Source of the DNA: an uncultured delta proteobacterium
GTDB taxonomy: Bacteria; Desulfobacterota; Desulfuromonadia; Desulfuromonadales; BM103
Direction of reading: 5' to 3'
Assembly: GCA_963715335.1 (NCBI GenBank)
Contig: CAVQRZ010000005.1
Span: forward strand, 64,001-128,000
Length of the DNA stretch: 64,000 nt
Shown: positions 6,699 through 13,971 of the stretch, one piece after another
Layout of the letters: each line of letters begins with the position of its first letter
Position numbering within the stretch: the stretch's first letter is position 1
Position numbers and translations under genes: made by a program
Notes under the pieces: model-generated
The model's database searches: none
Seen by the model: the letters and a program-made list of their open reading frames with translations, nothing else
Told to the model about the DNA's origin: nothing

Positions 6699-7111
6699 AA
6701 AGACCCGTTCGCCCCGGCCTTATGATCCTCGCTACCATAATCCTGCTCAGCAGCTCAACCGTCCTGTTCGCGGCGGAAACGAGCCTGGAGAAACCAGCCT
6801 TCAAGTCTGGCAAGGTTACGCTGACTTTTGCCGATGCACCGCTGAAAACGATGACTGAGACGCCCTTTGCAATAAAAGTTACGGGTGCTACCGGTATCGT
6901 TATCAGCGATGCCAGACTGAGTATCGACCTCGACATGCCGGACATGCCGATGCCACCGAACCACCCTGCAGCGACCTGGAAGGACGGTGCCTATCGAGGC
7001 GTTGCGATCTTCACAATGGCTGGCGCCTGGGAGATGACTGTTAACGTCCAGCGCCCCGGTTATGATCAGGAACACGTCATTTTCAAAATTGATCAAGTCA
7101 TGATGAAATGA
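6695..7111 (+). CDS. Exported FixH/YtkA-like Met-rich protein (possible copper chaperone)
   Basis: Signal peptide, MPDMPMPP and FTMAGAW motifs; ATGA overlaps with both neighbours. Confidence 0.65.
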   Translation: MKRPVRPGLMILATIILLSSSTVLFAAETSLEKPAFKSGKVTLTFADAPLKTMTETPFAIKVTGATGIVISDARLSIDLDMPDMPMPPNHPAATWKDGAYRGVAIFTMAGAWEMTVNVQRPGYDQEHVIFKIDQVMMK

Positions 7112-7791
7112 GCGAATCGCTCGTTTACATGGCCTTTATTACCGGTCTGCTTGGAACCGGTCACTGTATAGGTATGTGTGGCGGGTTGGTCAGTGCCCTG
7201 TCCCTGTCGGATGTCGGGCAGAAAGGTGGCTGGCTGTTTCATCTGCTCTACAATACCGGACGCATTGTAACTTATACCTTTATCGGTGCAGTGGTCGGCT
7301 GGCTCGGCTCCGCTCTGGCCTATACAGATCAGTTCAGGACCGTGAGCCGCACCCTGCTGCTATGCTCGGACCTGTTTGTCATCCTGGTAGGCCTTGGTAC
7401 CGCTGGCATGTTCGCATGGCTCAATGTCGCAAAACTCGATTTCCCCGGGCCGATGCGGTTGATGGCGACTGCCGTAAGCGGGTTGAGGCGCCTGCCACCG
7501 GCGCTGGCTGCCCTGCCGCTCGGTCTCCTGTTCGGCTTCATTCCCTGCGGGTACCTCTATGCCGTTGCCATCACGGCAGCCCAGAGTACGAATGTCATCA
7601 CCGGTGCCCTGATGCTCCTGGCCTTCGGCCTGGGGACGGCGCCAGCACTGTTCTTTTTCGGCAGCGCTGCCCAATGGTTGAGCGGCAAGGCCCGGACATG
7701 GATGCTGCGCATCGCCGGGATAGTCGTTGCCGGCATGGGTGTCATCAATCTTTTCAGTCACTTGAGAATGATGGGCATAATCGGGCCGTAA
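7108..7791 (+). CDS. DsbD_2/TauE-SafE-like membrane protein associated with cbb3 clusters
   Basis: GHCIGMCGG, YNTGRI, PCG.LY and FGLGTAP motifs. Confidence 0.85.
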   Translation: MSESLVYMAFITGLLGTGHCIGMCGGLVSALSLSDVGQKGGWLFHLLYNTGRIVTYTFIGAVVGWLGSALAYTDQFRTVSRTLLLCSDLFVILVGLGTAGMFAWLNVAKLDFPGPMRLMATAVSGLRRLPPALAALPLGLLFGFIPCGYLYAVAITAAQSTNVITGALMLLAFGLGTAPALFFFGSAAQWLSGKARTWMLRIAGIVVAGMGVINLFSHLRMMGIIGP

Positions 7792-7879
7792 AGGCTATCT
7801 TTTGGCTCTACTTGCGTTCTGTTTTGATATTAACGTCTGCCGCTGCCCCCTCCTTATCAAGATCCGTAACCTGAATTAC

Positions 7880-7972
7880 AAAAAAAAAGCCCCACAGCCA
7901 GGAGGGGACTGTGGGGCAACGGGTTCTATAGGGTTTTTCTTTAGGAGGTAGAACATGAAGAAAGTATGTTCT
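7880..7972 (-). ncRNA. Candidate ~93-nt sRNA-A, antisense to the RBS/start of the cytochrome c7 gene
   Basis: Own promoter, 5' hairpin AGAACAU/AUGUUCU, internal ACCUCCU, and a terminator with 9-bp stem, loop UCCCCUCCUGG and U9. Confidence 0.7.
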
Positions 7973-7979
7973 GGTTATT

Positions 7980-8007
7980 AGATTACCATTTTGGTCAGAT
8001 ATGTCAA
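7980..8007 (-). promoter_or_regulatory. Sigma70-type promoter of sRNA-A
   Basis: Minus strand reads TTGACA-16 nt-TAATCT with TG in the extended -10 position. Confidence 0.7.
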
Positions 8008-8183
8008 CATGAAAAACACAATAAAAAACCACCCAAGCGCGAACCCGGGTGGCAAGGATCTCCTTGGCTGGAGAGTTTGTAAATATCTCTGTCAACAAGA
8101 AGCCGGTTTTTGTTGCGACATTGGTTACTTACAGGCAGATCTGAGTCAAGGCGAAAGACCCTCCACTTAAGCTTGAATGATCG

Positions 8184-9236
8184 TCAAGACCTTAATTCTT
8201 CATAAATTTCGGCAAATCTTCCGCGACATTTTCGGAAAACCTCCAGAACCTCCGGGTCAAAATGTTCTGGCGAGGTACGATCGCTCCCTTGCAGAATAAT
8301 TGTACAGCTCTTCTCATGGCTAAACGCCTGCTTGTAAGGGCGTTCGCTTCTGAGAGCATCATATTGATCGCAGATATTCATGATTCGCGCGGTGAGAGGT
8401 ATTTCTTCACCCTTCAGGCCGTTTGGGTAGCCCTTGCCGTCCCAACGCTCATGGTGGTATCTGGCAATATCCACCGCCATCTGCAGATACGGAGAATTTG
8501 AGCCTTCCAGTATCTCGGCACCGATGGTTGTATGGGTCTTCATAATCTGCCACTCTGAAGCATTCAGCGGGCCCGGTTTCTGCTGGATAGCATCAGGTAT
8601 GGCCACCTTACCGACATCATGCATCGGCGAGGCATAAAAGATACTCTCGGCAAATTCGCTGCCCAGGTTACAGGCTTCAGCGATCTCCCTGGAGTAATAA
8701 CTGATGCGACTGATATGGGCACCGGTGTACTCATCCTTGAATTCTGAAGCCAGCACCAACCGGTGGATGGTGTCGATATAGCCCTCCCGTAGCAACAGGG
8801 TTCGCTCTGCCACCTGTTTCTCCAAGAGCTGCTTGTGCTCTGCCAGAAAATCATGAAACTCCTTGTTGCGAAGATTGTTTCTGAGTCGCAGAGACAGTTC
8901 CTCATTGTCGATCGGCTTGGTCAGGAAATCATCAGCCCCGATGGCTATGCCCGCCAGCCGATCTTTCCGGGAATCGAGACCAGTGATTATAATCACGGGG
9001 ATATGGGCCGTGTCCTTATCGTTTTTCAAATGTGCCGTAGCTTCAAGACCATCCATCTCCGGCATTACCACATCCATCAGGATGCAGTCTGGATGCTCAG
9101 TACGGGCAAACTCCACGACCTCACGGCCGTTCCTGGCCTTGACAGTTTCATACCCCAGATCTCTACACAGTTCCTCCAAAACCATGATGTGAAACAACTG
9201 GTCATCGGCGATCAGAATTTTTTTTGATGTGGTCAT
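8184..9236 (-). CDS. Response regulator with HD-GYP c-di-GMP phosphodiesterase domain
   Basis: Receiver residues DD/D/K; HDVGK and HHERWDGKGYP. Confidence 0.92.
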   Translation of the reverse strand: MTTSKKILIADDQLFHIMVLEELCRDLGYETVKARNGREVVEFARTEHPDCILMDVVMPEMDGLEATAHLKNDKDTAHIPVIIITGLDSRKDRLAGIAIGADDFLTKPIDNEELSLRLRNNLRNKEFHDFLAEHKQLLEKQVAERTLLLREGYIDTIHRLVLASEFKDEYTGAHISRISYYSREIAEACNLGSEFAESIFYASPMHDVGKVAIPDAIQQKPGPLNASEWQIMKTHTTIGAEILEGSNSPYLQMAVDIARYHHERWDGKGYPNGLKGEEIPLTARIMNICDQYDALRSERPYKQAFSHEKSCTIILQGSDRTSPEHFDPEVLEVFRKCRGRFAEIYEELRS

Positions 9237-13470: not shown

Positions 13471-13701
13471 ACCGCTGAGTCTACCAAGGGATCAACTAAC
13501 AAGCAAACGCTAAAAAACCCATGTCGACCAACTAGATTTTTTGTTACATAAGACACTGAAAATACAAAGAATAAGCCCTACATCTAGCGACATACGACTC
13601 GATGTCTGATGTCATCCCCATAATATTCGGCTATAAATACATCAAACGTTGTTAAGGCAATTGTGCCGAGAACAAAACACTTTTAACTCAGGAGGAAGAA
13701 C

Positions 13702-13971
13702 ATGAAGAAACTGGTAATCATCATGATGCTGCTGGCGTTCGTCGGTGTCAATGTTGCTATCGCAGCAGACAGCTACACCTACGAGAACAAGAAGGGTAAC
13801 GTTACTTTCGACCACAAGGCTCACCAGGACAAGGTGGGTGACTGTGCCAAATGCCACCAAGGCGAGCCGGCAAAAATTGCTGTCGACAAGGAATACGCCC
13901 ACTCGACTTGCAAAGACTGCCACAAGGACATGAACGGCCCGACCAAGTGTAACGACTGCCACAAGAAGTAA
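13702..13971 (+). CDS. ppcA: Periplasmic triheme cytochrome c7 (PpcA family)
   Basis: Signal peptide, GNVTFDHKAH, three CxxCH motifs, GPTKC; RBS AGGAGG. Which paralog it is cannot be determined. Confidence 0.9.
   Translation: MKKLVIIMMLLAFVGVNVAIAADSYTYENKKGNVTFDHKAHQDKVGDCAKCHQGEPAKIAVDKEYAHSTCKDCHKDMNGPTKCNDCHKK

Follow-up and report, generated by a model that had tools for sequence, protein, structure and literature searches.

The subject of this study is a short segment of a 64,000-nucleotide stretch of DNA, hereafter the window, which comprises positions 64,001 to 128,000 of contig CAVQRZ010000005.1 (assembly GCA_963715335.1) from an uncultured bacterium of the order Desulfuromonadales. 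Judged from its sequence, the minus strand of window positions 7880–8007 very probably carries the gene for a small RNA (sRNA) of about 90–94 nucleotides (nt), which is furnished with an intrinsic terminator and with a promoter of its own, of the sigma-70 type. Read on this strand, a T-rich stretch precedes the -35 box (TTGACA, 8007 to 8002), which is separated by a spacer of 16 nt from the -10 box (TAATCT, 7985 to 7980, preceded by TGG). The predicted RNA would start at about position 7972, as placed from the -10 box, and its fold opens with a hairpin (hairpin 1, 7950–7973) whose arms AGAACAU (7972 to 7966) and AUGUUCU (7956 to 7950) form seven base pairs around the 9-nt loop ACUUUCUUC (7965 to 7957); the computed energy needed to open it is 5.0 kcal/mol. 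Next come the stretch ACCUCCUAAAG, which is complementary to a Shine-Dalgarno (SD) sequence, and an A-rich linker (together 7930–7949), both unpaired in the centroid fold. The terminator (7880–7917) consists of the stem GCCCCACAGUC/GGCUGUGGGGC (7917 to 7889; 11 pairs, 8 of them G-C) and a run of nine U residues, and its loop, with the motif CCCCUCCUGG in the window copy, holds CCCUCCU as a second anti-SD sequence. The RNA thus exposes three C/U-rich sites, located in the loop of hairpin 1 (CUUCUUC), in the linker (ACCUCCUAA) and in the loop of the terminator (CCCUCCU). Folding of a 96-nt RNA yielded -27.4 kcal/mol (z = -4.8), a stability that none of 200 shuffled sequences attained.

Comparison with other copies strongly supported this gene model. 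In alignments of five copies from this genome and of 22 copies from 19 genomes, conservation extended from the -35 box to the U-run while the flanks were unrelated, which marks a small transcription unit that is complete in itself. From the 22 copies we built a covariance model (R1); when the collected loci were searched with it, 98 copies emerged, of which 80 were distinct. TTGAC was present in 81 of the 84 distinct copies with upstream sequence, and the A that follows it was invariant in those 81. Their consensus reads, after a T-rich stretch, TTGACATAyCTGACnAAAnnrGTAAkAT; the -10 box thus has the family form TAAkAT, with an invariant G just upstream. The spacer contains a near-invariant TGAC (T in 78, G in 67, A in 81 and C in 81 of the anchored copies), which in the window lies at 7994–7997 on the minus strand. 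Such conservation is unusual for the spacer of a sigma-70 promoter, and the motif is a possible binding site for a regulator. Taken together, the -35 box and the spacer motif read TTGACA-N3-CTGAC, a possible direct-repeat operator, and a second type of related locus, as it occurs in other families of the order, has a similar layout.

The structure of the RNA is conserved along with its promoter. Across the 80 distinct copies, in an alignment that was fitted to the model and therefore favors the structure, 96.7% of the cells were paired and 11 of the 18 base pairs showed compensatory changes. The values for hairpin 1 were 95.4% and four of seven pairs, those for the terminator 97.6% and seven of 11 pairs; none of 500 shuffles reached the observed values, and controls in which the structure was slid along the alignment paired at only 35–48%. 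Where only one side of a pair in the 5' arm has changed, the substitution is from A to G and gives a G-U pair, which is possible only with the minus strand as the RNA. The unpaired elements are maintained just as well: CUUC is found within the first 30 nt, the region of the hairpin-1 loop, in 76 of the 80 copies, CCUCC occurs in the linker of 76, an anti-SD motif in the terminator region of 77, and UUCAU, the complement of AUGAA, in 72. The locus thereby has attributes common to trans-acting sRNAs in general: an intergenic position, a promoter and a terminator that belong to it and are conserved together, and a covarying secondary structure combined with a conserved unpaired seed (in the alignment fitted to the model). 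The original prediction, made from the letters of the window alone, had proposed that the minus strand encodes an sRNA that has a promoter and a terminator to itself and exposes C/U-rich seeds; the comparative evidence for the gene is strong, and fold and motif counts support the seeds. It had also called for a search of Rfam, and Rfam 15 gave no match to the window copy at gathering level and holds no family for this sRNA.

The window copy is not alone in its genome. Five full copies of this main type are present, on contigs C5 (the window copy), C1, C28, C43 and C6, and they belong to a set of 13 related loci, all intergenic, that fall into four sequence types. Genome-wide, exactly 12 loci have the terminator stem CCCCACAG/CUGUGGGG, with CCUCC in each loop; these are four main-type, five second-type, two third-type and one fourth-type locus. 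The remaining main-type copy, that on C6, has a variant stem and carries CCUCCUCCC in the terminator loop. The second type (C5:53019-53107, C15:11894-11973, C15:30281-30361, C19:100832-100913 and C28:15959-16038 of this genome, G000) is likewise sRNA-like: a 5' hairpin with the motif UGCUGUGGCAGGC is followed by CUUCUUCAAAACCUCCUAAA and by the shared terminator stem with ACCUCC in its loop. The third type (C15:24788-24870 and C28:28396-28469) combines the shared stem with a C-rich loop containing CCUCC, and the fourth (C12:22277-22403) has the shared stem, a CCUCC loop and a promoter resembling that of the main family. When 16 loci with related elements (types A, B, C and D) were searched against Rfam, no match resulted, the sole hit at E ≤ 0.1 being a spurious miRNA.

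Beyond this genome, the sequence searches place the sRNA chiefly in a single, largely uncultured family of the Desulfuromonadales. A DNA search with window positions 7790-8190 gave matches in 21 of 41 genomes, many of them with several; they included 20 of the 24 other genomes of the same bacterial family and none of the 16 genomes from other families of the order. With R1, 38 of the 44 genomes of the family, from 10 of its 11 genera, gave 1–26 matches each at E ≤ 0.001, and one of them (G024) contains at least 16 matches scoring 60 bits or more. To our knowledge, at least 16 copies in one genome places this family among the larger known expansions of sibling sRNAs. Across the order, 63 of 151 sampled genomes had a match at E ≤ 0.01. 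Full-length single copies with the same seed occur in families f22 and f6, where the six that we read scored 65–74 bits, with one at 53.5 bits. The matches in families f12 and f23 represent the related second type rather than the main type; they have the same body as the second-type loci and the promoter TTGACA...TGAC/TAAC...GGTTATAAAT, and one tandem pair is among them. The two main families of the sister order (f28 and f29) gave weak matches in 3 of 39 and 4 of 26 genomes. We read six of these (35–44 bits), and five proved to be terminators with CCUCC-type loops that lack the sRNA body. The sixth, at C1:1081906-1082243 of a 3.8-Mb single-contig genome (G192), has a C/U-rich CCUUCCUCUUUUAACCCAUCCUCCCG before a terminator with a CCUUCCUCCUG loop and may be an unrelated anti-SD sRNA candidate. 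A scan of 185,579 public species genomes with an exact pattern retrieved 34 stretches, all from metagenome-assembled genomes (MAGs) or one isolate labeled Desulfuromonadales, Deltaproteobacteria or Geobacteraceae, except for two in a MAG labeled Shewanella sp. A Desulfuromonadales MAG of similar name stands beside the latter, and a problem of binning or labeling is the probable cause of this occurrence, rather than a true presence of the sRNA in Shewanella.

A predicted target of the window sRNA is the gene for a c7-type triheme cytochrome (13702–13971, plus strand), which encodes a protein of 89 amino acids with a signal peptide and three CXXCH motifs; the protein scored 28.1 bits against the Pfam family Cytochrom_CIII (cut-off 22.9) and 23.5 bits against Cytochrome_C7, just below the cut-off of 24.8. 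The plus strand at 7943-7963 reads AGGAGGtAGAACATGAAGAAA and that at 13690-13710 reads AGGAGGaAGAACATGAAGAAA; they agree at 20 of 21 bases, as the original prediction had stated and direct reading verified. The predicted target site, 20/21 complementary to the sRNA, covers the SD sequence, the spacer, the AUG and two further codons of the c7 mRNA, and the similarity between the two loci ends after these 21 nt. In the whole 3.3-Mb genome, 21-mers with at most one mismatch occur only at the sRNA locus itself, at one paralogue and at c7. The next matches are the start of the PccH cytochrome gene (two mismatches), that of an MtrB/PioB-like porin (three), and then those of periplasmic solute-binding proteins. 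GGAGG combined with ATGAA[AG]AA is present in 21 of the 14,617 candidate starts of this genome; much of the 21-nt match is generic, and the surprising part is therefore the match at five of six spacer positions, which by our rough estimate could arise by chance in about one genome in ten.

We ranked potential targets by the energy of pairing between the 31-nt accessible seed and the starts of 3,416 crudely called genes plus c7 (3,417 starts). The c7 start ranked first (-31.5 kcal/mol), so the original prediction had singled out the best-pairing start in this genome. That prediction had also asked whether many generic starts would pair equally well: c7 does come first, but an 8-haem cytochrome (-31.4 kcal/mol) and the MtrB/PioB-like porin (-30.7 kcal/mol) are nearly equal to it. 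These two and PccH (-25.3 kcal/mol) were within the top five of the list as it stood without c7. The starts of the four genes have the core GGAGG-N3-5-AACAUGA(A/G)GA in common (by sequence comparison, window positions 13690-13712 and C22:46690, C19:80412 and C22:30293 of this genome), which is why all of them appear at the top of the target list. Proteins with CXXCH motifs account for four of the top 10 entries, compared with 73 among the 3,407 that follow (Fisher p = 4.5e-5), and exported-looking proteins for eight of the top 10, against 432 of the remaining 3,407. When the anti-SD sequence was kept and the 5' 17 nt were shuffled (n = 12 controls), the top 20 contained zero or one CXXCH protein, compared with the four observed, and c7 fell to ranks 163–689. 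An earlier ranking with a 45-nt seed against the 14,617 raw candidate starts had placed c7 sixth, and several of the better entries were alternative or spurious starts. Duplexes between the c7 start and the five paralogues had energies from -25.8 to -34.0 kcal/mol, and those with the second sequence type -18 to -19 kcal/mol.

The reading that we favor, and to which we assign a probability of roughly 0.6, is that the window locus belongs to a multicopy family of sibling anti-SD sRNAs that would repress the translation of exported proteins by pairing with their start sites. The C/U-rich sites of the sRNA would bind to the purine-rich SD sequence of a target mRNA; hairpin 1 would then open, and pairing would extend to the start codon and the first lysine codons (AUG AAG AA). 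Such a duplex would block the binding of the 30S subunit and thereby repress translation. Hfq may assist in pairing; the genome contains hfq (80 bits), and the predicted sRNA offers an A-rich linker as well as a U-tail. Messages for exported proteins would be preferred as targets, the best matches in this genome being those for c7, the 8-haem cytochrome, the MtrB/PioB-like porin and PccH. What the analysis itself shows is the anatomy of the gene, its family, the covariation in its structure and the ranking by complementarity; that the gene is transcribed, that the RNA pairs in the cell and represses translation, that Hfq takes part and which genes form the regulon are inferred.

We very probably deal here with a new sRNA family of a known kind, that of anti-SD sibling sRNAs. 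Its closest likeness is to LhrC1-5 of Listeria monocytogenes (RF00616). LhrC is described as having five copies and three CU-rich sites that are redundant with one another, the first in a loop, the second in single-stranded RNA and the third in the loop of the terminator, and as binding SD regions (PMC4132741); the mRNAs that it is reported to bind at their AG-rich SD sequence code for surface or exported proteins, among them a solute-binding protein and proteins that handle haem, and control by the two-component system LisRK is described as well (PMC4132741; PMC5880928). The likeness, that of multicopy sibling sRNAs of about 100 nt with three C/U-rich single-stranded sites, concerns architecture only. 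LhrC was the best Rfam match of the present family, but with 26.7 bits against a gathering threshold of 110 (E = 0.26) it is non-significant and speaks for no homology. The motif of LhrC is UCCC whereas that of the present family is CCUCC with an anti-AUGAAGAA extension, the phyla differ, and the present family reaches at least 16 copies in one genome. The second comparison is with the cuckoo RNAs of the Alphaproteobacteria (CcsR1-4/RSs0680, SmelC397-type), for which anti-SD loops, clusters of up to nine copies and a proposed occlusion of the ribosome-binding site are described (PMC4615179). Anti-SD motifs in hairpin loops, multiple copies and the proposed mode of action are shared, but cuckoo RNAs consist of two to four adjacent hairpins, each with the loop CCUCCUCCC, whereas the present family has CCUCC only in the terminator loop and the linker and a different loop in hairpin 1. 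The window copy, with ACUUUCUUC and CCCCUCCUGG in its loops, gave no match to cuckoo RNAs in Rfam at E ≤ 10 and comes from a different bacterial class; it thus falls outside this group, to which NfeR1 is related. RoxS/RsaE of the Firmicutes also pair with SD sequences through C-rich unpaired motifs and are linked to redox conditions and respiration, but they are single-copy RNAs of other sequence and structure, and the Rfam search gave no hit to them. From the likeness to LhrC in architecture and to the cuckoo RNAs in anti-SD loops, we propose translational repression across the SD sequence and start codon.

A number of observations weigh against this proposal. The promoter of the window sRNA was absent from the list of a promoter-scanning tool, which missed it because TAATCT matches the consensus TATAAT at only three of six positions. 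The one metatranscriptome run found, which held 0.13 of the sampled words, is neutral: its two contigs covered 7623-7773 and 8424-8456, with none over the sRNA. Some compensatory changes in hairpin 1 (AGAAGAU/AUCUUCU and AGAACGA/UCGUUCU) keep the stem while altering or losing the anti-AUG sequence, so that the conserved GUUCU may serve hairpin 1 as much as a target. The ranking has its own weaknesses: our crude gene caller had dropped c7 in favor of a longer antisense open reading frame (ORF), and c7 was re-added by hand; the duplexfold energies disregard the accessibility of the target; and the enrichment of haem proteins is a post hoc observation.

The behavior of c7 in related genomes belongs to the same side of the balance. 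A c7 homologue is encoded in all 44 genomes of the family, and among 30 extracted starts the purine-rich SD sequence and AUG-AAR recur, with AUGAAGAAA as the commonest form, while the spacer varies. In the 27 genomes that provided both a c7 start and one or more sRNA copies, we compared c7 with 1,500 background starts, using one or two sRNA copies per genome and start regions of the present genome as the background. It was in the top 2% in 12 of the 27 genomes, lay beyond a background fraction of 0.1 in seven (four of them beyond the 50% mark), and paired better than 90% of the generic starts of the type GGAGG plus AUGAAGAA (AUGAA[AG]AA) in only six. PccH is found in only 13 of the 44 genomes, with a start region conserved only in close kin, and its rarity makes it uninformative as a conserved co-target. 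The long c7 match characterizes this genome but not the family, and it is not conserved even within the genus. Targeting of c7 is plausible: its mRNA is of the kind that the sRNA family should bind, and it is the best match in this genome.

These data bear directly on a narrower explanation, the one put forward by the original prediction, in which the sRNA is a dedicated trans-acting repressor of the PpcA-type c7 gene and, in connection with the neighboring O2-reductase operon, serves as a switch that responds to redox conditions or spares iron. The 20/21 complementarity, the first rank and the fact that c7 has the only non-family 21-mer with at most one mismatch favor it. So does a 19-nt pattern that, with up to one mismatch, had 104 matches in 30 of the 44 genomes and none for a reversed control; most of these were sRNA copies, but four were c7 orthologues (in G000, G011, G045 and G024) and two were PccH genes. 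The genomic position fits as well, since the locus follows a plus-strand operon for a cbb3 oxidase (ccoNOPGHIS), whose products comprise COX1/CcoN, FixO fused to a cbb3 haem domain, a FixP-like protein, a CcoG-like ferredoxin, FixH, a FixI-like P-type ATPase and FixS; genes for YtkA-like and DsbD_2 proteins come after it on the same strand and end at 7791. We nevertheless consider a dedicated repressor unlikely. The locus is one of five paralogues here, relatives carry many more, and the 8-haem cytochrome and the porin pair nearly as well as c7. Conservation of the sRNA-target pair in relatives, which the original prediction had named as a check, broke down among the closest ones: in all four congeners (G001-G004) the c7 start reads AGGAGGAAACAAUG, with a spacer one base shorter than in this genome, and the pairing of c7 in G002 and G003 does not surpass that of the median generic start. 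The predicted place at the end of the oxidase operon is real, as the locus sits just beyond ccoN, O, P, G, H, I and S, but only G002, the closest relative, showed synteny of the flanks (83% identity over query bases 12-401), and the idea of a redox switch at the end of that operon is therefore without support at the level of the family.

A second explanation dispenses with pairing altogether and regards the locus as a proliferating, non-regulatory repeat, either a promoter-plus-terminator cassette or a terminator module, in which the C/U-rich loops and the anti-start sequence are incidental. The high and variable copy number (1–26 matches per genome) would suit such a repeat, as would the confinement of the stem CCCCACAG/CUGUGGGG to 12 related loci of four sequence types, and some copies share a further unit upstream. 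Yet we found neither terminal inverted repeats nor target-site duplications at the borders, as miniature inverted-repeat transposable elements or repetitive extragenic palindromes would have them, and nothing is conserved beyond the span from promoter to terminator. Within that span, both helices are kept by compensatory changes and the single-stranded motifs are retained in 72–77 of 80 copies, a pattern to be expected of a functional RNA rather than of a decaying repeat. We therefore regard this explanation as improbable.

To a similar degree we doubt that the RNA acts on a protein or on another RNA, be it by titrating Hfq or a different RNA-binding protein or by pairing with convergent read-through from the oxidase operon. 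The U-tail, the A-rich (ARN-like) linker, the presence of hfq and the high copy number would suit titration. Read-through would be favored by the short distance, about 90 nt, between the end of the operon and the convergent terminator of the sRNA, with only a weak plus-strand terminator-like site (7909-7931) in the vicinity; plus-strand read-through would be perfectly antisense to the sRNA. That arrangement, however, is particular to the window copy, and the conserved motifs are anti-SD sequences, with a pairing role described for other systems (PMC4132741, PMC4615179). A CsrA sponge of the CsrB/RsmZ type was rejected: csrA had no match in the genome, which was scored 100% complete, and GGA occurs in the 5' part of only 10 of the 80 copies. 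A plus-strand feature, either a leader mini-ORF (MKKVCSGY, eight codons behind AGGAGG-N6-ATG and thus a strong SD sequence) or a 5' remnant of a c7 paralogue as hinted at by the 21-nt identity, is very improbable, since the ATG is ACG in the paralogue on C1 and changed in other copies too, the ORFs measure 8, 13, 20 and 21 codons and encode peptides that are not conserved, similarity to c7 stops after 21 nt, and the promoter, the U-run of the terminator and the G-U pairs all indicate the minus strand. The sRNA locus may nonetheless have an ancient origin in an inverted copy of a start region.

On its other side, the sRNA gene is bordered by a gene for a response regulator with an HD domain (8184-9236, minus strand), whose own terminator (8053 to 8028) lies just before the sRNA promoter. 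The minus strand at 8028-8113, immediately upstream of that promoter, contains a motif of 30–40 nt, AACCGGCTTCTTGTTGACAGAGATATTTAC, followed by a terminator with a GGGTTCG loop region that resembles the T-loop of tRNAs. The same pair of motif and terminator precedes sRNA copies in G002, G024 and G045, and the motif alone occurs elsewhere, for instance at C19:788-825 of the present genome. Either a second small unit of transcription or the 3' untranslated region of the response-regulator gene could account for this element. A tRNA-like element was rejected, as ARAGORN found no gene in 7000-9000.

Bacteria of the Geobacter/Desulfuromonas type produce dozens of c-type cytochromes, and the post-transcriptional tuning of these proteins is poorly known. 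Candidate sRNAs from Geobacter soli and G. sulfurreducens, which belong to the same class, have been proposed to modulate genes for extracellular electron transfer, but these are catalogues that define neither families nor mechanisms. For G. soli, 30 differentially expressed sRNAs are described with targets assigned by IntaRNA prediction only, and in the literature searched the sRNAs of this class are no more than catalogued, their links to electron-transfer genes being predictions (PMC6013743). With the anti-SD family described here, a defined sRNA family, a covariance model, a seed and a ranked list of targets are in hand, which makes the control of cytochromes by RNA directly testable. The shared promoter with its near-invariant spacer motif points to a single regulator. 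A wider reading, which we offer tentatively and hold to be possible rather than probable, is that a hyper-amplified anti-SD superfamily restrains translation of the exported electron-transfer proteome as a whole, a global brake commanded by one regulator acting at the TGAC motif of the promoter. If this is true, c7 and PccH would come under the brake in a largely uncultured family of metal-reducing Desulfuromonadales, together with multihaem cytochromes, the porin of a porin-cytochrome conduit and solute-binding proteins of the periplasm, and extracellular electron transfer would have its first case of control by RNA with a defined mechanism.

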